DNA of 64,000 bases from Candidatus Nanohalarchaeota archaeon (GTDB taxonomy: Archaea; Nanohalarchaeota; Nanosalinia; Nanosalinales; Nanosalinaceae). A program made the position numbers and the translations under genes. Positions 9,211 to 44,569 of the stretch are shown piece after piece (within the stretch, counting starts at the first letter, position 1; every line of letters begins with the position of its first letter). The stretch lies in the NCBI GenBank assembly GCA_022729235.1, contig JALDAJ010000001.1, positions 224,001-288,000 on the forward strand, written 5' to 3'. The notes below the pieces were generated by a model. That model saw only the letters and a list, made by a program, of their open reading frames with translations. It did no database searches and had not been told where the DNA came from.

Positions 9211-9343
9211 AGCCCCCTGGTGTAGCGGTCAATCATAGCGGCCTTTGGCACCTCAAGTTCTCGTCAGGGAACGAGGACTTTGAAGAGCTCTGCTCTTCAG
9301 GTGAAGATAGCCGCTGACCCAGGTTCGAATCCTGGGGGGGCTA
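9211..9343 (+). tRNA. tRNA-Gln(TTG) with 60-nt intron 9249-9308
   Basis: Acceptor AGCCCCC/GGGGGCT, anticodon TTG 9245-9247, BHB. Confidence 0.93.
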
Positions 9344-9346
9344 ACC

Positions 9347-9628
9347 ATGGCATCAGAAGTACGTGCATCCCACATCCTGGTCGACAGCAAGGAAAAAGCA
9401 CAGAACATAAAAGAACAGCTGGACAACGGAAAAAGCTTTGAACAGCTGGCAAAGGAGGCAAGCGAATGTCCCTCATCGGAGAAAGGAGGAGACCTCGGAT
9501 TTTTCGGAAAAGGTGACATGGTCAAGCCGTTCGAGAGGAAGGCGTTCAGCATGGATGTCGGCGACGTTTCCGGACCTGTCAAGACAGAGTTCGGGCATCA
9601 CCTGATCAAGAAGACTGATGAACGCTGA
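9347..9628 (+). CDS. Parvulin-type peptidyl-prolyl isomerase (PpiC/Par10-like)
   Basis: ASHILV, SECPS..KGGDLGFF, MVKPFE, VKTEFGHHLI. Confidence 0.93.
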   Translation: MASEVRASHILVDSKEKAQNIKEQLDNGKSFEQLAKEASECPSSEKGGDLGFFGKGDMVKPFERKAFSMDVGDVSGPVKTEFGHHLIKKTDER

Positions 9629-9678
9629 ACGCTGTCCACCCTTTATAAAATTTAGAGTGAAGTTGAGTGGTACGGGTT

Positions 9679-10170
9679 ATGTCTGAGACAAAAGAAGTTG
9701 TAAGAATTGCAAGAACAGATATCGACGGCACCAAGCCTGTAGCCAAAGCTATAACCTCACTGCAGGGTGTCGGCGAGACTTACGGTCACGCAGTATCACA
9801 GGTAATAGATGTAGATACAGAGACCAAGATAGGAGACCTTAGCGATGAAGAAATCGATAAAATCGAGGATACTATAAGAAGCCCGGAGGAAGCCGGAATC
9901 CCTGAATGGCTCAGAAACAGAAGAAAAGATAGGGAAGAAGGAGATGACCAGCACCTGATAGGTTCGGATCTTGAACTGAAAGAAGAATTCGATATCAGGC
10001 GCCTGAAAGAAATCGACTCGTACAAGGGCTGGAGACACGAAATCGGACTACCTGTTAGAGGACAGAAGACCAAGTCCTCGTTCAGATCAGGTTCAAAAAT
10101 CGGTGTTTCACGCGCACGCCTAAGAGAAGAAGCTTCCGAAGGCGGCGGAGACGACGAAGGTGAGGAGTAA
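9679..10170 (+). CDS. rps13: 30S ribosomal protein S13
   Basis: VRIARTDIDG, WLRNRRKD, GLPVRGQKTKS. Confidence 0.96.
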   Translation: MSETKEVVRIARTDIDGTKPVAKAITSLQGVGETYGHAVSQVIDVDTETKIGDLSDEEIDKIEDTIRSPEEAGIPEWLRNRRKDREEGDDQHLIGSDLELKEEFDIRRLKEIDSYKGWRHEIGLPVRGQKTKSSFRSGSKIGVSRARLREEASEGGGDDEGEE

Positions 10171-10192
10171 TGCACGGACAAGGTGATTTTGA

Positions 10193-10783
10193 GTGGTAAA
10201 AAAACTGAAGAAGCAGTACGAGACTCCTAACGAAGGATGGAACCAGGAAAGAATTAACAGAGAAATAGAGCTTATGGAGGAATACGGACTGAAGAACAAG
10301 GAAGAAGTCTTCAAAGCCCAGAGCCAGCTAAGAAGCCTGAGACGCGAAGCCCGTAACCTGGTAGCATCGGAAAACGAGAAGGAAAGGAAAGATCTTATTG
10401 AGAAAGCCAACCGGCTAGGGATTGTAAAAAAGGATGCAGAGCTTGAGGATATACTATCCCTAAGTGTTACAGACTTCCTTAACAGGAGACTCCAGACCGC
10501 AGTAAACAGGCGAGGATATACAGACACAGTGCAGGAGGCACGACAGCTTGTTGTTCACGGTCACGTTTACGTCAACGGACAGAGAGTAAACGTCCCGAGC
10601 TACATGCTTACACAGGAGGAAGAAAAAGGTATAGAGGTAATACTGCCTGAACCAGAAGATGAAGAAACAGAGCAGGAAGAAGATGAAGCCGAAGCAGAAA
10701 CAGGTGAAGAAGAGGAAACGGAAGAAAATGAAGAAGCAGAGGAAAAAACTGACGAAGAATCCGAAACGGAGGAAGAAGAATGA
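10193..10783 (+). CDS. rps4: 30S ribosomal protein S4 with long acidic tail
   Basis: [26 protein letters not shown]; SD GGTGA; GTG start. Confidence 0.96.
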
Positions 10784-11160
10784 CTAAAGGAATAGTTAAC
10801 ATCTACTCAAGCTTCAATAACACGATAATCCACATAACTGATGCTACAGGAGCTGAAACAATTTCCCGTATATCATCAGGCATGGTTACCGACAAAGGTC
10901 GGCTCCAGGGAGAACCGTTCCCTGCTATGAAGGCAGCGAAACAAGCAGTAGAGGAGGCACTGGAGAAAGGCATAGAAGAAGTAGACATCCAGGTAAGAGC
11001 ACCTGGAGGACAGAAACAGAAGATGCCCGGGAAAGGCGCACAGCCAGCTATCCGTGCGATTTCACGAAGCGAAATCGATGTCGGAAACATCGAAGACGTT
11101 ACACCCGAACCACACGACGGCGTAAGAGCCAAAGGCGGTAAGAGAGGTCGAAGAGTATGA
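10780..11160 (+). CDS. rps11: 30S ribosomal protein S11
   Basis: [40 protein letters not shown]. Confidence 0.97.
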
Positions 11161-11729
11161 ATATCGAAGTTGAAACAGAAGAAGACGGCGTCATGGAACT
11201 AAGACTTGAAAACGGGAACGCCGCAGTAGCGAACACTCTAAGACGCACAATGATGGCTAAAGTACCAACCCTCGCGGTACAGCACCTGGATATCGTGAAG
11301 AACGAGTCAGGTATTTTCGATGAAGTCCTGGCTAACAGGGTCGGACAGGTACCATTTACTATACCCGATAACGTTGAAGAAGGCGATACCGTGAACATCG
11401 CCCTGAAACAGGAAGGACCCGGAACAGTACTCGCTGAAGATCTCAAAACAGACAACGACGAGGCAGAACCTGTCAACCCAGAAGCTGTATTAGTCAGCCT
11501 GAAAGAAGATCAGGCACTGGAATTCGAGGCAGAAGCACAGCTAGGACGCGGTAAGGACCACACCAAACACCAGGGAGGAACAATCGGCTACGAGAAAGTC
11601 GATGAAGGAGAATTCCTCTTCAGGATAGAATCAACTTCCGGCTACAGCAACGAAGAACTCGTGGAAGCTGCGATTCAAGAAGTCAAGCAGGAACTTGATG
11701 AGTTCGAAGAAGCAGTTGAAGAGCTGTAG
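11157..11729 (+). CDS. rpoD: RNA polymerase subunit Rpo3/D (short form)
   Basis: [40 protein letters not shown]; position after rps11. Confidence 0.93.
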
Positions 11730-11814
11730 AATTTTTCTCTCATTCTGGATAACCTACCTCCCCCACTTTAAACTCTTCTACATTAATTCTCCTCTAGAGC
11801 CAGCTGTATCCAAC

Positions 11815-11965
11815 GCCGGGGTGGCCGAGTGGCTAAAGGCGCGGGACTTAAGTTCCTCAAGTTCTCCGACAGGGAGAACGAGGACCTAGAAGCGAACGCA
11901 CGTGAGCTTCGTGAGGATATCCCGTCCCCGCAGGGGGTGCGCGAGTTCAAATCTCGCCCCCGGCA
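11815..11965 (+). tRNA. tRNA-Leu(TAA) with 66-nt intron 11853-11918
   Basis: Acceptor GCCGGGG/CCCCGGC, anticodon TAA 11849-11851, long variable arm. Confidence 0.92.
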
Positions 11966-11978
11966 AATAATTTTTTCT

Positions 11979-12043
11979 GGCGAGATTTAATAAGCGGCAG
12001 AAAATCTCCGATTTTCAACCGAGTTCAAATCCCTGCCCCGGCA
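11979..12043 (+). repeat. Inverted T-arm copy, core hairpin and direct copy of the tRNA-Leu 3' end
   Basis: ggcgagatttaa; gcagaaaatc-tcc-gattttcaa; cgagttcaaatccctgccccggca. Confidence 0.8.
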
Positions 12044-12121
12044 TTTTCAGTGCTTACAAGCTGTAAGAACAGACCTTCCGAAAAGTTTAGGCAAGCCTAA
12101 AAAAGGTTGTACTCTAGTGCA

Positions 12122-12376
12122 ATGTTTGTTATGTCCTATAGTAAAGATTTCTCCCATCTTGAAGACACAGTGAAAACCTGCCTAGGAGACGGTTATGGAG
12201 TCAGTATAGGCACCAATAATGATAATTTTGAGGTCTACGTGACACCAGCAGACGGGCTAAGCAGCGAAGAGTTGGAAAAAATTGAAGAAGACGTACGTCG
12301 AGCTATCAATCCAGGAGCATACTGCGACAGTCACAGACTTGAGGAGTTCTATAGAGTGAGAATCCGCGCCCCATAG
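12122..12376 (+). CDS. Hypothetical protein inserted in the ribosomal cluster
   Basis: Acidic ORF, no recognised motif. Confidence 0.5.
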   Translation: MFVMSYSKDFSHLEDTVKTCLGDGYGVSIGTNNDNFEVYVTPADGLSSEELEKIEEDVRRAINPGAYCDSHRLEEFYRVRIRAP

Positions 12377-12452
12377 CTCTCAAACCATGACACCAGCGCA
12401 ACCGATTTATAAAGTTTTATCTCAACTGAATGACTACAGCCATCAGTGGTCT

Positions 12453-12500
12453 CGGTCGAACCTCTGGTTCGAGCCGTTGAGAAGATCTCTGATCTTCGAA
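12453..12500 (+). repeat. Two-hairpin palindromic element in the rpl18e 5' leader
   Basis: cggtcgaacc-tct-ggttcgagccg ttga-gaagatc-tct-gatcttc-ga; TATA tttataaa at about 12406. Confidence 0.8.
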
Positions 12501-12518
12501 CCGCGAGGTGAATACATC

Positions 12519-12869
12519 ATGGATAAAAACGCAGACCCAACCAACCCAGTACTTATCGAAACTCTAGATGTTCTTGAGGAGCAGGAAGCTCCTATATGGA
12601 ACTCAGTTAGAGAAAACCTTGGAAAAGTTAACCGTCAACGACCTGAAGTCAATATATCGGATATCGAAAGGATCGCAGAGGACGGAGAAACAGTTGTTGT
12701 ACCTGGTAAAGTACTTGGAGCCGGAAGACTGACAAAGAACGTTACAGTCTCCGCATTCGACGTTTCAAAAGGTGCAAGACAGAAAATCGAAGAAGACGGC
12801 GAGTTCATGTTTATCCAGGATTTAGTTGAGGAAAATCCCGAAGGAGAAGGGGTGAGAATAGTAAAATGA
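12519..12869 (+). CDS. rpl18e: 50S ribosomal protein L18e
   Basis: TNPVL, APIW, VNISDI, VVPGKVLGAG; SD GAGGTGA. Confidence 0.95.
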   Translation: MDKNADPTNPVLIETLDVLEEQEAPIWNSVRENLGKVNRQRPEVNISDIERIAEDGETVVVPGKVLGAGRLTKNVTVSAFDVSKGARQKIEEDGEFMFIQDLVEENPEGEGVRIVK

Positions 12870-13303
12870 CTGATACAGAAAATGTGGTAGTGATCAACGC
12901 TGAAGGCAAAGTAATCGGAAGACTGGCGTCAGAAATCGCGAGAAAAGTTAGAGACGGAGAAGAAGTAAGAGTTGTGAACTCTGAAAAAGTAGTTATCTCA
13001 GGCGATGAAGAAGAGATAAAAGCTGATTACAGACAGAGACACGAGAGAGGCGCAAGACACGACGGTCCTTACTTCCCAAAGAGACCTGACAAGATACTGA
13101 AGAGAACAGTCAGAGGCATGCTACCGTACAAGAACCAAGAGGGTCGAGAGGCATTCAAAAGAGTCAAGACCTACCTGGGTGTCCCTGAAGAGTTCGAAGA
13201 CTACGAAGAAGTTGAAGAGGTCAAGGAAGGAGACGAGCTGAAGAACCGGAACTATGTAAAACTTGGCGAAGTATCCAAGCACATCGGGTGGACTCCTAGA
13301 TGA
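12866..13303 (+). CDS. rpl13: 50S ribosomal protein L13
   Basis: IGRLAS, GPYFPKRPD, RTVRGMLPYK. Confidence 0.96.
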   Translation: MTDTENVVVINAEGKVIGRLASEIARKVRDGEEVRVVNSEKVVISGDEEEIKADYRQRHERGARHDGPYFPKRPDKILKRTVRGMLPYKNQEGREAFKRVKTYLGVPEEFEDYEEVEEVKEGDELKNRNYVKLGEVSKHIGWTPR

Positions 13304-13707
13304 GCGATGAAGCATTCGGAACCGGGAAAAGAAAGACAGCGAAGGCTAGAGCAAGCATAGAAGAGGGCGAAGGAACACTTAGGATTAACTCCAAGCCCCT
13401 GCACACGCTGCCCAAGATGTCCCAGCAGAGGATTAAAGAACCGCTTACCATCGCTGGCGAAGAAATAATAGAAGAAATCAGCATAGAGGTCAATAGCAAC
13501 GGGGGCGGAGTACAGGGACAGGCAGAAGCCATCAGGATGGCTATCGCCCGCGCACTAGTAGAATACACAGACAGCGACGAACTCGAAAACAAGTTCCGTG
13601 AATACGACAGGAACATGCTGGTCGAGGACCCACGAAGAACTGAGACCAGAAAACCCTCACAGTCGAGCAAAGGAGCCCGACACAAACAACAGAAGTCCTA
13701 CAGGTGA
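13300..13707 (+). CDS. rps9: 30S ribosomal protein S9
   Basis: GKRKTAKARA, GGGVQGQAEA, DPRRTE, QKSYR. Confidence 0.97.
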   Translation: MSDEAFGTGKRKTAKARASIEEGEGTLRINSKPLHTLPKMSQQRIKEPLTIAGEEIIEEISIEVNSNGGGVQGQAEAIRMAIARALVEYTDSDELENKFREYDRNMLVEDPRRTETRKPSQSSKGARHKQQKSYR

Positions 13708-13764
13708 TCAGCAGTGCATTTCACTGAAATGGACTTCGCAAAAACTCACGGAGGTGAGTTTTGA

Positions 13765-13962
13765 GTGCAGATACCAGTTAGATGTCTTTCATGCGGAAAA
13801 GTTATCGCAGACAAGTGGGAAGAATTCCAGGAACGTACAGAAGAAGGTGAGGACGCTGGAGAAGTACTTGACGACCTCGGAGTCGACAAATACTGCTGCA
13901 GAACAATCTTCCTGACCCATGTCGACACAATCGATGAAATCGGGGAACACAAGATTACTTGA
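13765..13962 (+). CDS. rpoN: RNA polymerase subunit Rpo10/N
   Basis: IPVRCLSCGKV, LDDLG..YCCR; GTG start with SD GGAGGTGA. Confidence 0.96.
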   Translation: MQIPVRCLSCGKVIADKWEEFQERTEEGEDAGEVLDDLGVDKYCCRTIFLTHVDTIDEIGEHKIT

Positions 13963-14344
13963 GTAACTTCCTCAGCGCTGGAAGAATCATCTCCAGATTA
14001 GGAGCCAGCTCTATATCCTCCAGCTTAGAGGAGTCAATCCACTCCATCTCAGAGAATTTTTCCTCTTTTATCTCCGGCTCTCCGCTCTTTATCTTCGAAA
14101 GATATCCGTGCCAGAGAAAAAGTTCTCCATCATGCTGGAACTCTCCGCTGAAAAACGGTTTCTCAAGCGCCACTTCGACACCGAGTTCCTCCCCTGCCTC
14201 CCTCACAGCGGCTTCGGTCGGCGACTCCTCGTCTTCAACCTTGCCACCAGGCACCTCCCACCAACATTCATCTTCCCTGTAAAGAAGGAGGACCTTGCCG
14301 TTCTCGACTATAACATTACCTGCAAGTTCAGTTACGCCGCTCAT
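13955..14344 (-). CDS. NUDIX hydrolase
   Basis: PGGKVE..ES..EAAVREAGEELG. Confidence 0.92.
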   Translation of the reverse strand: MSGVTELAGNVIVENGKVLLLYREDECWWEVPGGKVEDEESPTEAAVREAGEELGVEVALEKPFFSGEFQHDGELFLWHGYLSKIKSGEPEIKEEKFSEMEWIDSSKLEDIELAPNLEMILPALRKLLK

Positions 14345-14498
14345 AACTCCTCTGCACCCTCCCGGAGTTCATTTATTTCTCGATTATTTCCCGAAAACAG
14401 GCATCCTACCACCATAAAATCTCCATATCACTGGAAATTTCTTAATCTTCCGGATATATCAGTCAGGTTTTTATTCCAGCCTCCTTCAAACCTTCCTA

Positions 14499-16742: not shown

Positions 16743-16780
16743 AAGTGTTATACTCGATTTCTTCTATACTCATTTACAAT

Positions 16781-16855
16781 GCGGCCGTGGTGTAGTCCGG
16801 TCAATCATCTCGGCCTTTCGAGCCGATCACCCGGGTTCAAATCCCGGCGGCCGCA
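16781..16855 (+). tRNA. tRNA-Glu(TTC), no intron
   Basis: GCGGCCG/CGGCCGC acceptor, TCGGC-CT-TTC-GA-GCCGA. Confidence 0.95.
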
Positions 16856-16877
16856 TAACCTTTCAGGTTCTACTTGA

Positions 16878-16911
16878 GCCGGGTTTTGAAGGAAAAATCC
16901 TGGCGGCCGCA
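16878..16911 (+). repeat. Inverted and direct copy of the tRNA-Glu 3' end
   Basis: gccgggttttgaa (antisense of ttcaaatcccggc) then aaatcctggcggccgca. Confidence 0.75.
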
Positions 16912-16932
16912 CTTAATTATCTTCTATAAACA

Positions 16933-17250
16933 CTACTCGTTATTCTGCTTATACGTGCTCCACATGTAAACCAGTCTCTTGAAACAGTTCTTCCAGTCGT
17001 CTTCTCTGGTGAAGAACATCTTCTTCCATTCACCATCAATTTTCAGCATTATAGAGGGAAAAACAGGGTCAAGCTCGAAATCCAGGTCTTCTACATCCGA
17101 ATATTTCACGGAGTCAAGTATGATCTCTCTCGAAAACATGTCCGAAATCCGCTCCCAGTCCTCCACATCTTCTCTTTCCCGGGAAATACTTCCAAGACCT
17201 AAAGTGACATCACCCAGTTTTGATTCAAAGGTCTCCTCATCTTCGTTCAT
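16933..17250 (-). CDS. Hypothetical protein
   Basis: Acidic ORF abutting the citryl-CoA lyase stop. Confidence 0.65.
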   Translation of the reverse strand: MNEDEETFESKLGDVTLGLGSISREREDVEDWERISDMFSREIILDSVKYSDVEDLDFELDPVFPSIMLKIDGEWKKMFFTREDDWKNCFKRLVYMWSTYKQNNE

Positions 17251-24400: not shown

Positions 24401-24434
24401 GCGGGGGTAGCCAAGAATAGCTTGCCAACCCCCT
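24401..24434 (+). repeat. Direct and inverted copy of the tRNA-Leu(TAG) 5' end
   Basis: gcgggggtagccaag at 24401 and 24467; cttgccaaccccct is the antisense. Confidence 0.8.
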
Positions 24435-24466
24435 CCTCAAAAACAATAGGCAAGCCTTTACCCCAT

Positions 24467-32467: not shown

Positions 32468-32523
32468 ACGGCTTTCTCCGTTCAGGAGATAGCCGTTTGA
32501 GAAACCTGTTCTGCAGGTTTCGA
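32468..32523 (+). repeat. Two-hairpin palindromic element in the 16S leader
   Basis: acggctttctcc-gttca-ggagatagccgt ttga-gaaacctg-ttctg-caggtttc-ga. Confidence 0.78.
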
Positions 32524-32553
32524 CGTCAGAACCCTCCAACATTTGTTGGAGCA

Positions 32554-34027
<1,474 letters not shown>

Positions 34028-34196
34028 GAAAACTTAGCTTCTGCCACACAACCGGCAGAAGCCTCACACATCACTTCCAGGAACGCTATCAGCCTGGAAT
34101 GAGAATCCGTCTCTTCTTACATCCTTTACTTTTTGCTTTCTCTGAACTTTTTCCGAAAACTTTTAATACGCAGAAAAACAATGTTACTATGTTACA

Positions 34197-34613: not shown

Positions 34614-34684
34614 TATACCTGTACATACCTCTGCATCCCTCAGACTGTAAAGAAGGGTTTATAAACAGTCGAGAAACCCAGTGC

Positions 34685-35029: not shown

Positions 35030-35170
35030 GGAAACTGATTACAACCGCGTACAAGAACCATTGCATAATATTTCGCCCCCCTCAAAATGAAGCACCTGTT
35101 TTACATATCGCTGTCAACCCTCGCCGCGTTCTCCACCTGGAAGAAGCGATCGGAAACATCATAACACCTC

Positions 35171-35617: not shown

Positions 35618-35634
35618 AAAAACAGCACAATTGA

Positions 35635-35729
35635 TGGACCCTCAGGGATTCGAAAATCGAAGATTTTCTTCTCCTCAGAACTCTGCCGAGTTCTTCAGTT
35701 TGAAGAAATCCCTGATGTAAACTGAAGAG
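35635..35729 (-). repeat. Inverted copy, hairpins and direct copy of the tRNA-Ala 3' end
   Basis: tggaccctcagggattcgaa (35635) vs tggaccctcagggatttgaa (35730); core agaaaatc-ttc-gattttcgaa on the minus strand. Confidence 0.82.
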
Positions 35730-35878
35730 TGGACCCTCAGGGATTTGAACCCTGGGCCTTCCGCTGTTTTGGCCTAATTCCGCCGTAGGCGGCGACCACC
35801 GAAGTGTGGTCCTTGCGTGCCGCACGAGCGTAACCAGGCGTGCAAAGCGGACGTTCTGCCAGGCTGAACTAAGGGCCC
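35730..35878 (-). tRNA. tRNA-Ala(TGC) with 75-nt intron 35766-35840
   Basis: GGGCCCT/AGGGTCC with G3-U70, anticodon TGC, canonical BHB. Confidence 0.93.
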
Positions 35879-35950
35879 GAACGTATACTGTTGTAGTTGG
35901 TTGGTAGTTTTTTAAAGTGAAAAGTTATCCTGGAATGACATCTGGTTACC

Positions 35951-35960
35951 TTATTTAAAG
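35951..35960 (+). promoter_or_regulatory. Probable TATA box of an independent 23S transcript
   Basis: ttatttaaag divergent from tRNA-Ala. Confidence 0.45.
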
Positions 35961-36286
35961 GTTAAGTCTGATTCTTTGGATGCGGGACAATGAAATGAGA
36001 AGGATTATCTCGGATTCGTCTTTTTGCCTATAGAGTCCCGCTCTTGTCTTCCTTGCTTGATAGGCGGGGAGGATTATCTACCTATAAGGGGCGTCCCGTT
36101 GCGGATGTCCTTAGCACGAAAATGTCGCCTGACGCGAGGAGGATGGTGACAAGTAGTGCCACGCACGAGCAGATTTTTTGCGTGAAGCAGGTCCGGCCGC
36201 AATTTTACAAGTGATCCACCGGGCGTCTGTTTCTCGGCTCTGCCGAGAGATGGAGCATATCAAGTTGGTGCCTGACGTTGGATTGC

Positions 36287-39205
36287 TGGTACACAGCCGG
36301 TTAGCGAATGGCTCGGTTCGAGAAGCCGATGAAGGACGTGGCAAGCTGCGATAAGCTTGGGTAAGGCGCATGCAGCCCTAGAGCCCAAGATTTCCTAATG
36401 CGACCTCGTAGGTCGCTTCGGCGACCTAGCCCGCAAGGGCAGGGAACGCGGTGAACTGAAACATCTTAGTAGCCGCAGGAAGAAAAATCAACTGAGATCT
36501 CCTTAGTAGTGGCGAACGAAGGGGAGATAGCGCAAACTGAATCCGCATCTGTGAAGATGCTGGACATGTGGTTCGGCCGTCCGTAGGGACCGCGTCGTGT
36601 AGTCGAAGTCCTCTGGAAAGAGGCGCCGTAGAGAGTGATAGCCTCGTAGACGATCGCGACAACGTTCTGGGACGTGCCAAGAGTAGCATGGGTTGGAAAT
36701 CCTGTGTGAACTGGGAGGCACTACCTTCCAACGCTAAATACTTCTCGAATCCGATAGCGCACTAAGTAGTGTGAACGAAAGCTGAAAAGTACCCTTTACA
36801 GGGGGTTCAAAGACCCTGAAACTAACCGGTGATAGGCTAGGCAGGGCGTGGAAGCTTCGAAACCTTTCAACGAGCCAGTCGAGAGACTGTAGTAGGACAA
36901 GGTGGAGCAGCGTCCTGTCATCCGTTTTGAAAAACGGGGCAGGGAGTGTACTGCCGTGGCGAGACTAAGTCGTTTACGCGATGGAGTCGTAGCGAAAGCA
37001 AGAAGCCCGCAGTTTACGAGGGGTCACGTGTTAACTCGCGTGAAGTCACCGCAGTACGATCCGAAACCGGTCGATCCTGGCCTGGGCAGGTTGAAGCGCA
37101 GCGAAAGCTGCGTGGAGGACCGCAAGCGGTGCTGTGATACAAGCGCTCGCGTGACCTGGGTCAAGGGGTGAAATGTCAATCGAGATCGGTGATGGCTGGT
37201 TCCTCTCAAAATGGGCCGAAGTCCAGCCTTGGACGAGCCGGCTAACGAGGTAAAGCGACTGATTCCGACTCCCTAGGGTTTCCCTAGGGCCGGAGTCAAA
37301 CTCTGAACTCGTTAGCGGTGTAGACTCCAGGAGTCAGGGACGGTGCGTAAGGTACCGTTCCGAGAGGGAAACAACCCAGAGCAAGGTTAAGGCCCCCAAT
37401 TCCTGACTAAGTGCCCATGAAGGGCGTCTCAGTTCTCAGACAGCGGGAAGGTTAGCTTAGAAGCAGCTACCCTTTAAAGAAAGCGTAACAGCTCACCCGT
37501 TGAGGACCGAGGCACCTAAAATGGACGGGGCTCAAGTCAGGAGCCGATACCTTGCCATTGTTTCTACAATGGATAGAGAGGCGATCCGTTCGGACGGAAG
37601 CATGGACGTGAGTTCGTGTGGACCGTGCGGATACGAAGATCCTGCCGGTAGTACCAGCGTCAACAAGAGTGAGAATCTCTTGCGCCGCAAGAGGAAGGGT
37701 TCCTCGGCAATGATTATCAGCTGAGGGTTAGCCGGTCCTAATCCCGCTCCTAACTGGACGCGGGAGAATTGGGAAGCAGGTTAATATTCCTGCGCCTACC
37801 CACGATAACCGACGTTTCGGGATAGCGGAAACTGCGCCTTCGCGCAGTCTAAACTGTTAATGCGGGCGAGCGTAATGCTTCGACCCCGTGAAACAGTGAA
37901 TGGCCTGGGAATTATCCCGGGTTTCCGTGAGTCCTGGAACCTTTGAAAAGGTGTGGGAGTCCGTACCCAGAACTAGCACAAGTCCTCTGGCTGATTAGGC
38001 TAAGGCGTTTCGGGCACAACTCGGCTCAGGGAATTCGGCAAGTTAGCTCCGTACCTTCGGAAGATGGAGTGCCTATCCTCTCGATAGGATAGGTCTCAGT
38101 GACCAGGGGGGCTCGACTGTTTACTAAAAACACATCCGACTGCCAGTCCGAAAGGATTTGTATAGTCGGAGACCCTTGCCCAGTGCCAGCACCTGAACAC
38201 CCCGTACATGGGGACGAAGGGCTGGTAAACGGCGGCGGTAACTATGACCGTCTTAAGGTAGCGTAGTCCCTTGCCAGTTAATTACTGGCCCGCATCAATA
38301 GGGCAACGAGGTCCCCACTGTCCCGAGCCGTGGCCCGGTGAACCCGCCGTACCGGCGCACAGGCCGGTGACTCCCGGTGGGAAGCGAAGACCCTGTGAAC
38401 CTTTACTGCAGTCTGTCGTTGCTGCGGGGGTCCAGGTGTGAAGTGTAGGTAGGAGACGTTACAGAGACGCAGGCGCTAGCCTGTCGCCCAGTCGACCATG
38501 GGACACTACCCTCTTGGAACCCTGCGGCTTACGTCTACGGACGGACAGCGGCAGCTGGGCAGTTTAACTGGGGCGGTATCCCTCTGATAACGAATCAGAG
38601 GGGTCCAAAGGTAGGCTCAGCCCGGTCAGAAATCGGGCGTAGAGTACAAGGATAAAAGCCTGCCTGACTGGAATCTTACCAATACGGATTCCAGGCGCGA
38701 AAGCGTGGCCTAGCGAACCTCTGTGTGCCAATTAGTGAGGCCCAGGTATGACAGAAAAGGTACTCCAGGGATAACTGGATTGTCTCGGGCGCGAGCTCAC
38801 ATCGACCCCGAGGCTTGTTACTTCGATGTCGGCTCTCCGTATCCTGGCTGTGCAACAGCAGCCAAGGGTGGGGGTGTTCACCCATTAAAACGGATCGTGA
38901 GCTGGGTTTAGATCGGCGTGAGCCAGATCGGTTGCTATCTGCCGGGAGTGTTTATGCGGTTTGAGAGGAAAGTCCGGACAGTACGAAAGGAACCCTGGAC
39001 TGAGGCCTCTGGTGTACCTGTCATCCGAGAGGGTGTTGCAGGGTAGCTACGCCTCACAGGCCTAAAAGCTGAAAGCATCTAAGCTTGAAGGTCTCCTCAA
39101 ACAAGAAACCGCATCCGCTCTCGTACAAGACGAGTTGATAGAGTGGCGGTGTAAGCACCAAGGCAACGAGGTGTTCAGCCGACCACTACTAATCGCGGGT
39201 TTCAC
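36287..39205 (+). rRNA. 23S rRNA (ends approximate)
   Basis: GAACTGAAACATCTTAGTA, GGGATAAC, TCGATGTCGGCTC, GTGAGCTGGGTTTAGA, SRL, GCTGAAAGCATCTAAG; processing stem 36186-36272/39223-39345. Confidence 0.98.
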
Positions 39206-39247
39206 AGCAATTCCACACGGACGGCACCAACTTGAGCTCTAACAACT

Positions 39248-39302
39248 ACGACTTACTCCCGTCAGGGAGTTGGTCGTCTGAGAAGACCTCTTTGGTCTTC
39301 GA
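39248..39302 (+). repeat. Two-hairpin palindromic element in the 23S 3' processing arm
   Basis: acgacttactcc..gggagttggtcgt ctga-gaagacc-tcttt-ggtcttc-ga. Confidence 0.85.
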
Positions 39303-39425
39303 AACAGGTGCCTGGTGGATCACTTACCCAACGGCCGGACCTGCTAAGGTATACTTTTTCTGTATTTCTATCTCTATTTACCAGATAGAGAAAGATTTTT
39401 CTGCTACAATAGGACTAAACATACT

Positions 39426-40523
39426 ATGGAAGATGTTCTGAAGGATTATCCTCATCTCTATCAATTTCTACCCGACAACTTTGTGAAAAAGGCTAAACAG
39501 AAAGAAAGAGACGTGGAACACTCCATTATAGTATCTATAAAAAATAATTCCAACTATTTAGAGGTTTTGAATGACAGAATTGAAAGCTTGAAAGGGACTC
39601 CTGGTGAGAATATACTTGACAGATATTCCTCACAAGTAGATTCAAACAAAAAGTTTCATAGCTTTCTAGCAGAAATGAATTGCTATCTTCTGCTAAATGA
39701 GATTTTTGAGGACTTAGAACCCGTTAACGAAGATAGCTTCGATGAAGGTAAAAAACCTACCGATTTCTACTCAGAGAAACACGAAATTGACATCGAAGCT
39801 ACCTCTATTAACAAACACGAACCAGAGAGCAAACTATTCAGTTTAATTAGAGACTGGATAGAAGGTTTTGAGGAAAGCTATGAAGTGAGATTAATTAAGA
39901 AAGATAACTACAACAAATTCCCTTCCAACTATAAGGAAATAGAGGAAAATAGCAAGGAAGTAGAAGAAGTAAAACGTCTCATTGAGAACACGCCTCAACC
40001 TGAGACAATTGAAACAGATGCCTTCAAGATAACAGTAGAAAAATCTGATTTTGAAGAATCTATCTTCAAAGGTTCTGGTTGGGAATCTGCTGAATTTATT
40101 CCTGAAGATCCATCAAATTCTATTCGGAATCAGATAGATTCCAAAACAGACAAAGACCCTATATCAGACCACATGCTAATCTATCTAGATATAGATGGGT
40201 TTTTCCAGATGGATCATTCTTTGACAAAAATACTTCAGGGAGGAATTACTCATTTCGAACCGCCTATAGAACCAGAAGTGTCAAAGAAACTCAACACACA
40301 ACCAGAAGCGCTGAGAAAATATATGGAGGAGAATGGATTAATTCCCTCAGAAAATCAGCCTAGTGCTATACCTCCTGACGAAGAAGGTCTGTTTAAAGAA
40401 ATCGATGACTCGATAATTGGAGTAATCGCTTATCTACCCAATAGAAAACTAGTATTTCTACCAAATGTGTATAGTCAGAACCAGAAAGTTACTGAGATAC
40501 TAAATACCTTAGAACCAGAATAA
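39426..40523 (+). CDS. AT-rich orphan, possible PD-(D/E)xK nuclease fold
   Basis: FLAE ... KPTDF ... IDIEATS; atypical composition. Confidence 0.5.
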   Translation: MEDVLKDYPHLYQFLPDNFVKKAKQKERDVEHSIIVSIKNNSNYLEVLNDRIESLKGTPGENILDRYSSQVDSNKKFHSFLAEMNCYLLLNEIFEDLEPVNEDSFDEGKKPTDFYSEKHEIDIEATSINKHEPESKLFSLIRDWIEGFEESYEVRLIKKDNYNKFPSNYKEIEENSKEVEEVKRLIENTPQPETIETDAFKITVEKSDFEESIFKGSGWESAEFIPEDPSNSIRNQIDSKTDKDPISDHMLIYLDIDGFFQMDHSLTKILQGGITHFEPPIEPEVSKKLNTQPEALRKYMEENGLIPSENQPSAIPPDEEGLFKEIDDSIIGVIAYLPNRKLVFLPNVYSQNQKVTEILNTLEPE

Positions 40524-40609
40524 GAGTCTAATATGTAGGCTAGGGGTATCTGAAAATTTCTTACAGAGATTCAGCTAGTTTTTTAGATTTTTCTGCACTA
40601 TATAGCAGT

Positions 40610-40762
40610 ATGAGCGATTCTGACGACTTTTGGAAAGTAGTGGCAGGAGCAGCAGGATTAGGAGGTCTTGCCTATCTGCTTTCTACGAAAAAGTGTCGTC
40701 AATGTGGTAAAAGAAATCCTAATGAAAACCAAAGATGCTCTAACTGCGGAGCATACCTATGA
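40610..40762 (+). CDS. 50-aa TM plus zinc-ribbon protein (not in the ORF track)
   Basis: MSDSDDFWKVVAGAAGLGGLAYLLSTKKCRQCGKRNPNENQRCSNCGAYL; ATGA overlap with next gene. Confidence 0.8.
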   Translation: MSDSDDFWKVVAGAAGLGGLAYLLSTKKCRQCGKRNPNENQRCSNCGAYL

Positions 40763-41094
40763 CCTCTCTAAAAGAGCTTCTTAGGATATCCGATATAGAA
40801 TTCTGGAAGGAATTGAGACATAACTGGAACCACGGAAGTGTCAAAGACCAGATGCTTTTCTGTCTTCTTATTACTCCAATGCTAACCTTCCTAGTATTCT
40901 ATAACAATGGAATGCCAAAAATACAGCAGTATTTTGTAGGCGGAATGCTCCTAGTACTATTTGTTTCAATTTTCAATACTTGGGCGTTTGCCAAAGGCGA
41001 ATATGAAGAAAGAAATTATAAGTGCAACAACTGTGGAAACCCTATGGAACACAAGTTAATAGAAGACCATACTTGCCCTGAAGATACAGAATAG
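40759..41094 (+). CDS. Two-TM protein with C-terminal CxxC..HxC motif
   Basis: Two hydrophobic helices, CNNC...HTC. Confidence 0.65.
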   Translation: MTSLKELLRISDIEFWKELRHNWNHGSVKDQMLFCLLITPMLTFLVFYNNGMPKIQQYFVGGMLLVLFVSIFNTWAFAKGEYEERNYKCNNCGNPMEHKLIEDHTCPEDTE

Positions 41095-41143
41095 AATGAT
41101 CGCTCTGCAAAAGATTTTATATCCTTAAGAGAAACTTGAACGC

Positions 41144-41365
41144 GTGGAAGTTGCAGAAAAAGCCAGTATAGATGCTACTTTGGGCACAGGACTTATTATT
41201 TCAGCACTGTCTTTATGGCTAATAGTTTTTCAGCTAGAGGAGACATTGTATCTCATTCATAGATCAGCTCAAGCCCTCTGGATACTAGGCATTTTCTTTA
41301 TTAGCCATAGTGTGATTGCCAGATTTACGGGCAAAGGAATAAGGGATCTCCTCAAGAGAGACTAA
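41144..41365 (+). CDS. Small two-TM protein
   Basis: Hydrophobic ORF, GTG start. Confidence 0.5.
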   Translation: MEVAEKASIDATLGTGLIISALSLWLIVFQLEETLYLIHRSAQALWILGIFFISHSVIARFTGKGIRDLLKRD

Positions 41366-41492
41366 ACAAAACTAAACACCTCCTACCTCTAGTTAAACGC
41401 TCTCCTCTGTTTTTTGAACAGAATTAAACGGTCGTTCACGGATATGGCATTTAAGCACCGCCACCCACAGTTTTGGTCGAGGTGAAACACGA

Positions 41493-41813
41493 ATGAGAAC
41501 ATTACTAATCGCACTACTAGCAATCGGGTTAACTGCAGGAGCAGCGGCGATCCCTGCACACGCACAGGACAATATGCCAGATCAGGCAACGGAGAAGATG
41601 GAGGAACACATGCACGATGAAGCAGAGCATCAGGTCCAGGAGAACCAGCAGGAACTGCCTGAAGAAGTAGAGCAGGCAGGTGAGAGTTCAGAGGAAGCGA
41701 ACAGCGAACGGCAAGGATCTCCTGAACACGTCACACGGGGACCGCCCGCGTTTGTAGCGGATAAAGTTCCTGCTCACGTGCTTGATAGAGTGCCGGCGTT
41801 TGTCTTCGGCTAA
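41493..41813 (+). CDS. Secreted acidic low-complexity protein
   Basis: SD GAGGTGA, signal peptide, GPPAFV..VPAFVFG tail. Confidence 0.72.
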   Translation: MRTLLIALLAIGLTAGAAAIPAHAQDNMPDQATEKMEEHMHDEAEHQVQENQQELPEEVEQAGESSEEANSERQGSPEHVTRGPPAFVADKVPAHVLDRVPAFVFG

Positions 41814-41912
41814 AAGAGTGGAGGAGCTCCCGATCCCTTCCCTTCTTTATTTTTGTCAGACTGTATACGCCTTTCTTAAGCAACCCCACCAAATTTGAGG
41901 ATGTGATTTAAA

Positions 41913-42464
41913 ATGAGACGAGCAATTGTCGCAGTAGCTCTCGCAGTATTTCTTGTCGCGGGAGCTACTACAGTTGCGGCGCAAGAAGAGCATAACGAGT
42001 CCGTTGAAGATCCAGTGAATGAGACTGAGGAAGAGATAGAAGCTCCAGTGAATGAAACAGAAGATGAAGTAACAGAGGCTGAAAGAGGTGAGTCCGCTCA
42101 GTTCGACGCTCGGTTGATGACCGCGATCAACACGGTCGAGGTACTTGTAGAAATCGCTCCAGACGAGGAATCGGAGCAAGCACTCCAGGATGTACTGGAC
42201 AGCCTTGAGGAAGTACAGGAGAACACTGATACAGCAAGCCTCGGACCTGAAGGAACACCGAGAGAAGTACCTGAAGACGCAGGAGAGCAAGACGGAGCAG
42301 AAGAGGAACCTGAAGAAGCAGATTCCGGAGAGGAAGCAGAAGAAGCTGGAGAAGAGACACCGGAAGAAGATGAACAACAGGGACCGCCTGAAGACCGTGG
42401 ACCTGAAGAGAACGAGAACCGGCCTGGATTCGTTAACCGGATGCTAGGCGGCATCTTCGGTTAA
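41913..42464 (+). CDS. Secreted acidic low-complexity protein
   Basis: Signal peptide, GPP, RPGFVNRMLGGIFG tail. Confidence 0.72.
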   Translation: MRRAIVAVALAVFLVAGATTVAAQEEHNESVEDPVNETEEEIEAPVNETEDEVTEAERGESAQFDARLMTAINTVEVLVEIAPDEESEQALQDVLDSLEEVQENTDTASLGPEGTPREVPEDAGEQDGAEEEPEEADSGEEAEEAGEETPEEDEQQGPPEDRGPEENENRPGFVNRMLGGIFG

Positions 42465-42528
42465 TCGACCCAGGAACCTCGGTAGCGCCGACAAACCTTT
42501 TTCTTCTTTTACTTCTCTAGTATACAGT

Positions 42529-43125
42529 ATGCCTGAGAGCCCAGAGGCGTTTTACTCACGCGGAGCCGAGAAATTTGCGGAGAAGAATTCTTTCGAGAAT
42601 ATGCCCCAGGAGTACATAGACCTTCTTGACCAGTTCATCGAACTCGTTCAAGGCGATGAAGTCTTGGACGCAGGCTGCGGGCATGGTAGAGATACAAACT
42701 ATTTTACCGAGAACGGGCTTGACACTATCGGGATCGACGTAGCGGGCGGTATGCTAGAGTACGCTAGGGAGAACCAAAAAGGAGAATATCTACGGATGGA
42801 TGTCAGAGAATTAGAATTTGAGGATAACAGGTTTGACGGCTTATGGTGCAATACCGTTCTGCTTTTCTTCCCGATAGGCGAGATGAGAGATGTGATAAAA
42901 GAACTTTCCAGAGTTACAAAAGACGACGGCGTGATTTTTGTCAGCTTCAAAATCGGAGAAAGCCCTATAATGCGCGAAAAATACGGTAGTGAAGTTAAAC
43001 ACCATCTTATACCTGAGGAAAAAGCCATAGACCTGCTTGAATCAGAAGATTTGGAGATAATCGATGTTTACAGATACGAAACTGGCGGAGGATTCAAGGT
43101 CGCCGACATCTTCTGTCGAAACTAG
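42529..43125 (+). CDS. Class I SAM-dependent methyltransferase
   Basis: VLDAGCGHGRD, GID, FDGLW. Confidence 0.9.
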   Translation: MPESPEAFYSRGAEKFAEKNSFENMPQEYIDLLDQFIELVQGDEVLDAGCGHGRDTNYFTENGLDTIGIDVAGGMLEYARENQKGEYLRMDVRELEFEDNRFDGLWCNTVLLFFPIGEMRDVIKELSRVTKDDGVIFVSFKIGESPIMREKYGSEVKHHLIPEEKAIDLLESEDLEIIDVYRYETGGGFKVADIFCRN

Positions 43126-43163
43126 CACCAGATTTTAACGTTTCTCTCACCAATAACTCCTGT

Positions 43164-43580
43164 ATGTCAAGCCATGCCCCTCCTTTCCAGAACGGTGCAG
43201 GAGGCGTTGACCCTCTAGTATTTACAGCTCTGGGAGCCTTGATTGTGATCGTCATCATGTCTTTGGCGTATATCTGGTGGCTTCATAACAGGAGGGAGAC
43301 TATCCTGCCCGAGGAAGAGCTTGAGAAAGAGGATGAAACACAGGAAGACGTGAGAATCGACCGCATGGGATTGTCAAAACGGTCGGAAGATGTTCTGGGT
43401 GTCGTGATGGACGCCCCGATGCTGCAGAACGAGCTTCCAGACGAACTCGGTGTTTCGAAAGCCACAGTCAGTAACGCTGTAAGCGAGCTTTTCGACCGTG
43501 ATCTTGTGATGAAGAAAAAGAAGGCGAACACGTACCTTATCGAGCCTAACATGGATGAGATACGGGAACAGTCCCGCTGA
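43164..43580 (+). CDS. Membrane-anchored winged-HTH regulator
   Basis: N-terminal TM; QNELPDELGVSKATVSNAV. Confidence 0.8.
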   Translation: MSSHAPPFQNGAGGVDPLVFTALGALIVIVIMSLAYIWWLHNRRETILPEEELEKEDETQEDVRIDRMGLSKRSEDVLGVVMDAPMLQNELPDELGVSKATVSNAVSELFDRDLVMKKKKANTYLIEPNMDEIREQSR

Positions 43581-43623
43581 TATCGGCGTTGAGCTTAAAA
43601 ATCTTGTCGTATAGGTTAGCGTG

Positions 43624-44110
43624 TTGGAGGCGGAGTGACCGCCACCGCTGGCGTTCGCAAATCAGAGATTTGCTTCCAACAGCGATCTCTGACGAGAACG
43701 CTGAGTGAGGAAAGTCCCGACACCGACTCAAACGTGGCAGCTGTAAGAGCTGTGGACCGGAAGGTCCTGGAGATCCATCGCAACCTCAGTAATATGAGGG
43801 TAGGTGGCTCATGGAGCAGCAGAAACGACACGTCCTGGTTCAAAGATGACGGCGTGAATGGTGGTAATGGCGTCAAAACCGACGCCACCAGCAAAAGCCA
43901 GATATTTACCAGGGATCGATGAAACGTGGCTCTGACACCCGGTGCAAGCCGAAAGAGCGCGCCGTGCAGGAACGAACCTGCCGGACCAGTCAACCTTCAC
44001 AGGTAGCCTGGTAGTTAAATGCGGTCCACGACTTACTCCTCTCGGGAGTTGGTCGTTTGAGAAGAGCTTTGCTCTTCGATAACAGAATCGGGCTTACTCC
44101 CGCCTCCACC
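43624..44110 (+). ncRNA. rnpB: RNase P RNA (about 485 nt)
   Basis: GAGGAAAGTCC, GCAGAAAC, TGAAACG, GGTGCAAG, TAGTTAAATG, AACAGAATCGGGCTTA; P1 tggaggcgg/ccgcctcca. Confidence 0.93.
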
Positions 44111-44147
44111 ACTAATACTTTTGAAGGTAGACCACGAGGTTCCAAAT

Positions 44148-44309
44148 ATGGCAAAAGACAACGAAGCACGGATGCCGACTTCACAGGGAGGACTTGTCCA
44201 GTACTATGATGCAGATACAGGGATGGAGTTCGATCCCAAGGTAATCATCGGAGGAGTCATGACAGTAGCCGTTATCGGTATCGCGCTCAACACAGGAATC
44301 CTTATTTGA
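44148..44309 (+). CDS. Preprotein translocase Sec61-beta
   Basis: MPTSQGGLVQYYD...DPK plus C-terminal TM. Confidence 0.88.
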   Translation: MAKDNEARMPTSQGGLVQYYDADTGMEFDPKVIIGGVMTVAVIGIALNTGILI

Positions 44310-44378
44310 TTCTTCAACTATCCTCCCGAAGTCAACGTTATTTAAGAATTCTATCTGTAAACTTTTCACGTAGTTCAC

Positions 44379-44569
44379 GGGTCCGTAGCTCAGCCCGGAC
44401 AGAGCACTCGGCTTCTATTCCTCAAGTTCCCAGTAGGGAACGAGGACCGAGAAGACCGCAGGGTCTTCGAAACACACCTTCTCCCCGCGGAGAAGTGTGC
44501 TCGAACGGCTTTCGTCTCAAAGCCGTAGAAGACACCGAGATGTCGAGGGTTCAAATCCCTCCGGACTCG
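44379..44569 (+). tRNA. tRNA-Arg(TCT) with 116-nt intron 44418-44533
   Basis: GGGTCCG/CGGACTC, CTCGG/CCGAG stem, anticodon TCT 44414-44416. Confidence 0.92.

Follow-up and report, generated by a model that had tools for sequence, protein, structure and literature searches.

Transposition of introns between transfer RNA (tRNA) genes has been reported in the Thermoproteales, by a mechanism that is described there as unknown (PMC4090602). In the Asgard archaea, many independent gains of tRNA introns have been described at sites capable of forming a splicing motif, and that preprint, which leaves the route of arrival open, reports neither a general route nor copying between tRNA genes (10.64898/2026.10.13.758758). 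Here we describe the tRNA introns of a nanohaloarchaeon, starting from a 64,000-nt stretch of its genome (G000:C1:224001-288000, hereafter the window) that holds the archaeal 16S and 23S ribosomal RNA (rRNA) genes and ten tRNA genes. The genome (G000) is a single contig of 1,027,595 bp with a G+C content of 48.5%, and the comparison set for the class comprised 70 genomes of 0.5–1.7 Mb. The sequence comparisons led us to propose, with a probability that we put at roughly 0.6, that Nanohaloarchaea carry enzyme-spliced archaeal tRNA introns between nucleotides (nt) 37 and 38 that are composed of hairpin modules and have been copied between non-homologous tRNA genes.

The system of G000 and that of the Thermoproteales (PMC4090602) are alike in that very similar introns lie in tRNAs that differ in identity and are not closely related in their bodies, in that gain by copying between tRNA genes is implied, and in the constraint imposed by the bulge-helix-bulge (BHB) splicing motif. 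They differ in that the Thermoproteales introns occupy both canonical and non-canonical sites and are served by an (αβ)2 endonuclease of broad specificity, whereas those of G000 all lie at 37/38 in a genome with a single gene for a 181-aa α4-like enzyme. The present organism also differs in belonging to the DPANN lineage, in sharing a hairpin module that is kept across families of the class with compensatory changes, in having introns that differ by hairpin blocks, and in carrying one class of hairpin also in RNase P RNA and in the flanks of rRNA and tRNA genes. Relative to the Asgard archaea, the difference is that copying between tRNA genes is directly visible in G000 and its relatives. A literature search of limited coverage found no paper on the tRNA introns or the RNase P RNA of Nanohaloarchaea.

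Intron anatomy and processing genes

ARAGORN, with introns allowed, found 35 tRNA genes in G000, ten of which lie within the window; Rfam recovered eight of these ten. Introns, whose borders were re-derived from the anticodon stem, interrupt 20 of the 35 genes, always between nt 37 and 38, and range from 30 to 203 nt in length. In the window, tRNA-Glu, tRNA-Leu(UAG), and tRNA-His have no intron. The other seven carry introns of 58, 60, 66, 75, 116, 44, and 112 nt, in agreement with an initial annotation of the window that had read seven of ten tRNAs as having 37/38 introns of 44–116 nt; positions 9249 and 44533, between which that annotation had placed the set, are the first base of the tRNA-Gln intron and the last base of the tRNA-Arg intron, respectively. 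Metagenome contigs of other abundant organisms join position 9248 to position 9309 and skip exactly the 60 nt of the Gln intron, which, as the contigs come from other organisms, shows its borders only. For Ala(UGC) and Asn(GUU), exon matches to tRNAs of relatives agree with an intron between nt 37 and 38. Alignment of metagenome contigs showed no insertion polymorphism for this organism. BLAST searches of G000 with the Gln(CUG), Glu(CUC), Lys(CUU), and Pro(CGG) tRNAs of relatives matched only U34 paralogues, and several C34 isoacceptors were therefore not found in this genome.

Each of the 20 introns is a string of one to seven hairpins. The closing helix is formed by nt 32–35 of the anticodon loop and intron positions −6 to −3, with 4/4 pairs in 18 introns and 3/4 in the other two; when the loop of one tRNA was set against the intron end of another as a control, 4/4 pairing occurred in 13.7% of the combinations. 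The splice-site helix is thus tailored to its own anticodon loop, as had been noted for the window. The bulge at the 3' splice site consists of the last two intron nucleotides and nt 38. On the inner side, a continuous helix is found in only three introns (Gln, Ala(UGC), and Asp), and the remaining 17 have, beyond the 5' bulge, a multi-branch loop with one to seven hairpins. The strict hBHBh' form has two 3-nt bulges on either side of a 4-bp helix, with a further helix beyond each bulge; of this form, the central helix and the 3' bulge were recovered in 18 of the 20 introns, and the inner side was mostly a separate hairpin, for example module A (see below), following the 5' bulge.

Canonical BHB tRNA introns, which are cut by EndA and joined by RtcB, have in common with those of G000 the 37/38 site, the 4-bp helix with nt 32–35, and the 3-nt bulge with the 3' cut, and the endonuclease and ligase genes are likewise encoded in G000. 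In contrast to the canonical type, the introns of G000 are long (30–203 nt), the strand facing the 5' bulge is broken by extra hairpins in 17 of 20 cases, and the inner helix appears to come from a self-contained hairpin and not from the two intron ends. A single 181-aa open reading frame (ORF) matches the splicing endonuclease domains PF02778 and PF01974, and no second copy was found when one was looked for in G000. One small protein with both domains has the layout of the homotetrameric α4 type, and we regard the enzyme as α4-like on this basis; such an enzyme fits with all introns of G000 lying at 37/38. Genes for RtcB (PF01139), L7Ae, and fibrillarin were also found. RtcB matches in two pieces of one 966-aa open frame (G000:C1:586267-588984, minus strand), which suggests an intein or another large insertion.

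A hairpin module shared by unrelated tRNAs

The introns of tRNA-Gln(UUG), tRNA-Leu(UAA), and tRNA-Arg(UCU) in the window open with the same element, CCTCAAGTTC-loop-GAACGAGGAC, which is followed by a GAAG hairpin; the initial annotation had recognized this shared opening, and we refer to it as module A. In tRNA-Gln(UUG) (9210–9347, plus strand; 60-nt intron at 9249–9308), module A occupies 9251–9278 and is followed at 9282–9298 by a hairpin of a second class, designated B-type. AGGT at 9299–9302 pairs with ACCT at 9250–9253 to give the continuous inner helix, and GAAG at 9303–9306 pairs with nt 32–35 of the anticodon loop. In tRNA-Leu(UAA) (11815–11965, plus strand; 66-nt intron at 11853–11918), module A at 11855–11885 is followed by a hairpin of the form GAAGC-GA-ACG..CGT-GA-GCTTC at 11889–11910. 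The 116-nt intron of tRNA-Arg(UCU) (44378–44570, plus strand; intron at 44418–44533) has four hairpins, namely module A (44420–44447), a B-type hairpin (44451–44468), a third (44473–44499), and a fourth (44507–44524), with GCTCGAAC at 44499–44506 as a linker and GAAG at 44528–44531 pairing with the loop. A search of the window for CCTCAAGTTC with up to one mismatch gave 17 matches against 5.8 expected, and the three exact matches were those in the introns.

Genome-wide, module A (CCTCAAGTYC-loop-GRACGRGGAC) opens seven introns, those of tRNA-Gln, Leu(UAA), Arg(UCU), Arg(GCG), Thr(CGU), Lys(UUU), and Arg(UCG). All seven copies are intronic, and neither a fuzzy pattern allowing up to two substitutions per arm nor a covariance model found one outside the introns of G000. 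When folded, the module begins with a CCUC/GRGG helix of 4 bp, to which an AA bulge and then a variable stem-loop are joined. Thirty copies, taken from 17 genomes, were aligned, and standard pairs fill 98.3% of the pair cells, compared to 43–58% in slid controls, and 14 columns are invariant. The pair 11–28, both positions of which had been left free in the search pattern, is UA in 19 copies, CG in 11, and unpaired in none, and none of 500 shuffles reached the observed score. Among the 25 copies with a readable anticodon loop, the spacing between nt 37 and the start of module A is 2 nt in 22, 3 nt in one, and 4 nt in two, and the lower helix of the module therefore lies where the inner helix of the BHB motif should begin. 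The linker following the module reads NGA in 19 of the 30 copies and NAA, NTA, or NCA in most of the others. Module A was also considered as a kink-turn (K-turn), a loop E, or an H/ACA element, and was rejected as such because its sequence does not fit.

The covariance model matched 32 of the 70 class genomes (26/49 in family f1, 2/10 in f3, and 3/8 in f4), with zero to seven copies per genome. Its hosts across genomes amount to at least 14 isoacceptors and include Pro(UGG), Gly(UCC), Leu(UAG), and Ser(UGA), all of which are without an intron in G000. Ten of the 14 isoacceptors have U34, compared to 14 of the 35 tRNAs of G000; the genomes being related, this bias toward U34 hosts is only a hint. 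In one relative, two copies of module A stand in tandem in an Arg(UCG) intron (L019). A wider scan of contigs with the module A pattern, in which pairing was not enforced, gave at least 119 loci, mostly bacterial chance matches; among the matches listed, at least nine lie inside a tRNA called by ARAGORN. Several contigs of relatives (L001, L010, L011, L013, L018, and L019) end about 50–250 nt from a module A intron. Repeats that break assemblies would give such ends, and intron counts in these genomes are thus underestimates.

Probable copying between tRNA genes and intron turnover

The exons of the seven module A hosts have a mean identity of 0.62, compared to 0.625 among the other intron-bearing tRNAs, whereas the first 42 nt of their introns are 0.75 identical, compared to 0.52. 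With the host exons at background level, paralogy of the tRNA genes does not account for the similarity of the introns.

Comparison with a congeneric genome (G001) showed that the exons of orthologous tRNAs are 96–99% identical (71/72 to 74/77), whereas their introns are 47–79% identical, replaced, absent, or different by whole blocks. The Arg(GCG) introns are essentially unrelated (33/62 identical), and the Gln introns agree at 33 of 60 positions. For Arg(UCU) the agreement is 41/87; G001 has another hairpin in place of module A, and a 29-nt block consisting of the linker and the fourth hairpin is present only in G000. The Ile(UAU) introns (44/56) differ in addition by a 61-nt block of three hairpins found only in G001. 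The Met intron is 203 nt long in G000, compared to 92 and 91 nt in two other genera (G011 and G015, respectively). Arg(UCG) has an intron in G000 but none in G001 or G011, and among the four compared genomes intron presence varies for Arg(UCG), Thr(CGU), Thr(UGU), Phe, and Val(GAC), where a tRNA missing from the relatives' table counts as not recovered rather than absent.

The intron of tRNA-Leu(UAA) in G000 and that of tRNA-Gly(UCC) in G001 are identical at 54 of 66 positions (82%), compared to 49 of 70 for the exons. The Leu(UAA) intron of G000 is nearer to this Gly(UCC) intron than to the Leu(UAA) intron of G011 (38/60), and the Leu and Gly introns differ chiefly at their 3' ends, where each pairs with its own anticodon loop. 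The exon and intron identities, the turnover between orthologues, and the tandem module A support the copying of introns between unrelated tRNA genes and their growth or shrinkage by hairpin blocks. The proposal that introns grow by accretion of modules is borne out to the extent that whole hairpin blocks differ between orthologues (Ile(UAU), Arg(UCU), and Met) and that module A occurs in tandem in L019.

We propose the following course of events. Each intron is a multi-branch loop of short hairpins, drawn from a few sequence families and closed by the 4-bp helix between loop nt 32–35 and nucleotides near its own 3' end, and module A would serve as a portable inner helix adjoining the bulge of the 5' splice site. 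A BHB-like substrate would in this way be offered to the 181-aa α4-like endonuclease despite the hairpins branching off the opposite strand, and the introns would be spliced. Whole introns, or their 5' modules, would be copied between non-homologous tRNA genes, probably at the DNA level, and after such a copy only the last few intron nucleotides would need to fit the new anticodon loop. The introns would then gain, lose, or duplicate hairpin blocks, and would often be replaced or lost.

Several observations weigh against this explanation. The α4 type is described as needing a strict motif, yet 17 of the 20 introns have no continuous inner helix; either stacking of the first hairpin suffices, or the enzyme is more tolerant, or an undetected factor helps. 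Thirteen of the 20 introns do not contain module A, and the Gln and Lys orthologues of G001 carry diverged versions of it. The invariant CCUCAAG...ACGRGGAC across families exceeds what a mere helix needs, which points to protein binding, to a role of the excised intron, or to a very recent spread. No direct trace of a copying event, such as a target duplication, was found at the intron borders. In addition, the cross-genome counts are drawn from related, non-independent genomes, and the sets of G001, G011, and G015 consist of 27, 30, and 31 tRNAs, respectively, recovered from at most 30 loci each together with ARAGORN.

Other intron families

The remaining introns of the window open with other elements. 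That of tRNA-Ser(GGA) (3634–3780, plus strand; 58-nt intron at 3674–3731, between nt 37 and 38) is made up of two hairpins, with a B-type one (3705–3721) in second place. The gene at 35729–35878 on the minus strand was called tRNA-Cys by ARAGORN in error; read as two exons, it matches tRNA-Ala(UGC) of G015 at 100% and is itself tRNA-Ala(UGC). Its 75-nt intron (35766–35840), with the opening CTGGTTACGCTCG, belongs to a group that we designate family C. This intron and that of Thr(GGU) in G000 are 93% identical over 61 nt, and their opening, CTGGTTAYGCTCGG...ACGCAA, recurs in two introns of G015, Ala(CGC) and Lys(CUU), and in a looser form in Arg(GCG) of G011. The tRNA-Ala(UGC) gene sits in the 2.25-kb spacer between the 16S (32554–34027) and 23S (36280–39213) rRNA genes, which are both on the plus strand, opposite to it.

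The introns of tRNA-Phe (57014–57132, minus strand; 44-nt intron at 57051–57094) and tRNA-Asn(GUU) (61340–61525, minus strand; intron of about 110–112 nt at 61377–61488) both open with an ACACGCC...GGTGTT hairpin, as had been proposed. The hairpin has two copies in the whole genome, both at these intron starts, and none was found outside the introns of G000. ARAGORN had called the Asn gene tRNA-Ala, and its identity was corrected by exon match to tRNAs of relatives. After the opening hairpin, the Asn intron forms a long stem enclosing two hairpins, a block of 65 nt that is 85% identical to a block of the Met intron. The GCTCGAAC linker, on which a relationship between the Arg and Asn introns had been suggested, is indeed present in both, but it is a common 8-mer with 53 copies genome-wide and is weak alone; judged by sequence, the solid relationship of the Asn intron is the 65-nt block shared with Met, not this linker. 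The Met and Trp introns have CGATGATTAAAAC in common. Two copies of CTGGTTAYGCTC lie in introns of G000, and a third copy of this 12-mer, considered as a module outside introns, is part of a coding frame and was discounted as a probable chance match.

Guide-like introns of tRNA-Trp and tRNA-Met

The pre-tRNA-Trp intron of Haloferax volcanii contains a box C/D guide RNA, and box C/D RNAs place their target at the fifth nucleotide upstream of box D or D' (the N+5 rule). In G000, the 102-nt intron of tRNA-Trp (L285, G000:C1:921928-922103, minus strand) and the intron of tRNA-Met (locus L286, G000:C1:92052-92328, plus strand) both contain a complement of the anticodon loop that ends 1 nt before an AUGA box, with C34 opposite the fifth nucleotide upstream, and a GAUGAUU box (GAUGAUUAAAAC) after the apical hairpin. 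G011 and G015 show the same arrangement. Like the Haloferax volcanii intron, those of G000 would thus carry a guide, a D'-like AUGA, and a C'-like GAUGAUU, in a genome with fibrillarin and L7Ae genes, and they resemble box C/D RNAs with a single guide. Terminal boxes of the C (RUGAUGA) and D (CUGA) type were not found in either intron, so that each would be a one-guide "half" RNA, and Rfam at a loose threshold gave no family besides tRNA at the Trp, Met, Gly, Ser, and Lys loci. Unlike in the Haloferax volcanii guide, the hairpin that separates the two boxes in G000 has been enlarged by additional hairpins of about 100 nt, and the module A and B introns of the window are without such a guide.

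Hairpins outside the introns

The B-type class, (G/C)A-GAAR-stem-loop-YTTC-GA, provides the second hairpin of many introns. Hairpins flanked by GA on both sides number 25 in G000, six of them in tRNA introns, compared to one in the reversed genome. A tighter census gave 577 GAA...TTC hairpins, compared to 361 in the reversed genome; the commonest flanks among the 577 were CA/GA (23) and GA/GA (19), the latter being absent from the control. The palindrome GAAAATC-N3-5-GATTTTC occurs at 14 loci, compared to none in the control, and eight of these lie within 100 nt downstream of tRNA genes. Besides introns, the generic hairpin is found in tRNA trailers, in the leaders of some mRNAs, in both flanks of the rRNA genes, and within RNase P RNA. 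A scan of G000 for intact T-arms found 33, all within the 35 annotated tRNAs; a hidden tRNA gene with an intact T-arm therefore does not explain the hairpins outside tRNAs.

In the window, a B-type hairpin lies at 32501–32521 (plus strand), about 35 nt upstream of the 5' end of the 16S rRNA, and a two-hairpin unit, CGACTTACTCC...GGTCG with a B-type hairpin at 39282–39300 and GAAACAG after it, lies at 39249–39307 (plus strand), just 3' of the 23S rRNA. The RNase P RNA (43625–44108, plus strand) is 484 nt long, compared to a model of 288 positions, and scores 79.8 bits, just under the Rfam cut-off of 84. It contains a two-hairpin insert at about 44027–44079 (B-type hairpin at 44061–44077), directly 5' of the conserved ACAGAA, of which the unit 3' of the 23S rRNA is a near-identical copy. 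With other stem sequences, the insert is present in G001, G012, G024, G009, and G011, and it is missing in G008, G017, G006, G018, and G019. The length of RNase P RNA across relatives is 254 to 465 nt. A further B-type hairpin (12481–12497, plus strand) precedes a 116-aa ORF, the start codon of which lies 21 nt downstream and which, by eye only, resembles an L18e ribosomal protein. Others stand at G000:C1:626239, 620597, 217859, and 585844; these leader hairpins are 10–75 nt upstream of translation-related genes, which comprise an L18e-like gene, genes like those of the phenylalanyl-tRNA synthetase beta subunit and glycyl-tRNA synthetase, and genes of two small basic proteins, all identified by eye only. 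The suggestion that modules of the introns also occur outside tRNAs therefore stands for one part and falls for another: one hairpin class, the generic (G/C)A-GAAR...YTTC-GA hairpin, is common to introns and other stable-RNA contexts, but the intron-opening modules, module A and ACACGCC...GGTGTT, are found only in introns in G000.

This distribution raises a tentative alternative, namely that the shared hairpins are selected functional RNA modules, which would either belong to guide RNAs or bind a general RNA-binding protein, for which L7Ae, as a K-turn binder, is a candidate. One protein acting in the maturation of tRNA, rRNA, and RNase P RNA, and not intron mobility, would then account for the recurrence of the hairpins, and such a role would be compatible with the copying of introns between tRNA genes. 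It would explain why B-type hairpins are found in introns, in trailers, in rRNA flanks, in RNase P RNA, and at 10–25 nt upstream of several translation-related genes, why those with GA on both sides are so much more frequent than in the reversed genome, and why the RNase P insert is kept with changed stems in six genomes including G000. Many of the hairpins begin 2–3 nt past the preceding helix and have GA on both sides, an arrangement of strands that a K-turn set in a three-way junction would have; L7Ae is both a K-turn binder and a subunit of RNase P, and its gene is present together with that of fibrillarin. The guide-like layout of the Trp and Met introns, which G011 and G015 share, points in the same direction. 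On the other hand, the CA/GA flank is as common as GA/GA, and CA cannot make the tandem sheared G-A pairs that, next to a 3-nt bulge between two helices, define a canonical K-turn; only 19 of the 30 module A copies are followed by an NGA linker; and Rfam finds nothing in the introns. Nor does selection on function explain why a Leu and a Gly intron of sister species are 82% identical, or why introns are lost and replaced. We consider this alternative doubtful as an account of the shared hairpins.

Duplicated tRNA ends and the insertion in tRNA-Gly(GCC)

The tRNA genes of G000 are often accompanied by copies of their own ends. An exact copy (at least 11 nt) of the 3' end lies within 400 nt downstream of 12 of the 35 tRNAs, a copy of the 5' end lies upstream of five, and none of the 35 has the copies in swapped orientation. 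The downstream unit consists of a spacer, a segment complementary to the T-loop, a B-type hairpin, and a copy running from the T-loop to the 3' end, and the upstream unit is its mirror image (copy of the 5' end, hairpin, and complement). The complementary segment varies with the T-loop variant. Where the end copies differ, as in Ser(GGA) and Leu(UAA), the copy within the tRNA is the intact one. The trailer of tRNA-Ser(GGA) (3781–3908, plus strand) contains an anti-T-loop segment, a T-loop copy, two B-type hairpins (3848–3866 and 3875–3892), and, last, a degenerate copy of the 3' end. The trailer of Ser(UGA), 360 kb away, is closely similar to it. The source assembly breaks in the Ser(GGA) trailer, as it would in a repeat. 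Other units in the window are the trailers of Leu(UAA) (11966–12045), Ala(UGC) (35635–35728, minus strand), and Phe (56947–57013, minus strand) and the leaders of Gln (9155–9209) and Leu(UAG) (24401–24466), the last being near-identical to the leader of Leu(GAG). In G001, the units accompany tRNAs other than those in G000, namely Ala(GGC), Met, Tyr, Glu(CUC), and Leu(GAG). The T-loop duplications were also considered as introns of the T-loop; no BHB motif could be drawn for them, and the first copy is intact in Ser(GGA) and Leu(UAA), so this was rejected. Off-target CRISPR-like integration was likewise considered as the origin of the duplications and was dropped.

Two further loci show insertions in other loops of tRNA sequences. 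tRNA-Gly(GCC) (L287, G000:C1:41250-41700, minus strand) has a 59-nt insertion with flanking repeats of 9 nt, and it falls below the Rfam cut-off because the insertion splits the D-loop. Only the upstream copy of its 5' end has a fitting acceptor strand, and the arrangement is kept in G001. The insert has no module in common with the 37/38 introns, and it may be a non-canonical intron in a genome with an α4-like endonuclease. A 5'-truncated copy of tRNA-Pro (G000:C1:158640-158900, minus strand), which lies some 850 nt away from the intact Pro(UGG) gene, is interrupted in the T-loop by two B-type hairpins.

These arrangements allow another alternative, which we regard as unlikely: the hairpins would be copies of a tiny non-coding mobile element that enters the loops of stable-RNA genes generally, so that introns would be the spliceable insertions in the anticodon loop, with other insertions surviving in the flanks. 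The bias of the end copies, with 3' copies downstream, 5' copies upstream, and none swapped, and the hairpin and T-loop-matched segment that precede each copy would be expected from such an element. So would the different positions of the units in G001, the split T-loop of the truncated tRNA-Pro, the D-loop insertion with its 9-nt repeat in tRNA-Gly(GCC) of both G000 and G001, the near-identical units in RNase P RNA and 3' of the 23S rRNA, and the contigs of relatives that often end at module A introns, as they do at repeats. In one form of this idea, to which we likewise give little credence, the hairpins clamped by (G/C)A...GA would be a very small non-coding mobile module, defined by structure, that colonizes stable-RNA loops in Nanohaloarchaea. 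Insertions in the anticodon loop would become spliceable introns; those near the T- or D-loop would be accompanied by duplication of the tRNA end and leave units of the form [anti-loop]-[hairpin]-[tRNA-end copy]; and RNase P RNA and the rRNA spacers would be expanded by the same modules. Either copy could decay after such a duplication; where the inner one does, as in Gly(GCC), the insert would have to be removed, which would create an intron at a site not used before. A single RNA-binding protein may, in addition, be brought by the modules to every RNA of the translation apparatus.

Features usual for mobile DNA argue otherwise. A miniature inverted-repeat transposable element or an insertion sequence has terminal inverted repeats, a target duplication of fixed length, and a cognate transposase, and the units of G000 do not show them: neither a transposase nor terminal inverted repeats were found linked to the units, apart from one transposase-like fragment near one hairpin, and the flank duplications vary from 9 to 24 nt. 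The canonical introns have no flanking duplication, module A never occurs outside introns, and no pair of filled and empty sites was obtained within one species.

Inheritance of the similarity with the tRNA genes, by duplication of intron-bearing paralogues that later changed their anticodon, can draw on the exons of Arg(UCU) and Arg(UCG), which are 84% identical and both interrupted by module A introns, and on the near-identical Leu(UAG) and Leu(GAG) leaders, which indicate that some tRNA genes were duplicated with their flanks, but it is very improbable, being largely refuted by the background-level identity of host exons as different as Gln, Leu, Lys, Thr, and three Arg, by the occurrence of module A in at least 14 isoacceptors, and by orthologues whose almost identical exons carry unrelated introns or none.

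Discussion

Copying of hairpin-built introns between non-homologous tRNA genes, as proposed here, appears to be a real extension of the intron transposition of the Thermoproteales to another archaeal lineage, and it is well supported as comparative genomics. How archaeal tRNA genes gain introns is an open question, and this salt-lake lineage is promising for studying how introns spread. It is a tractable one, with copying that can be seen, turnover within one genus, genomes of about 1 Mb, and a single small endonuclease, and some relatives can be grown in co-culture. The introns raise the questions of what an intron must carry in order to move, how little retailoring of its 3' end is enough, and whether a branched substrate can be accepted by an α4-type enzyme. 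If the hairpins outside the tRNAs belong to the same process, the finding would also bear on the expansion segments of RNase P RNA and other stable RNAs.

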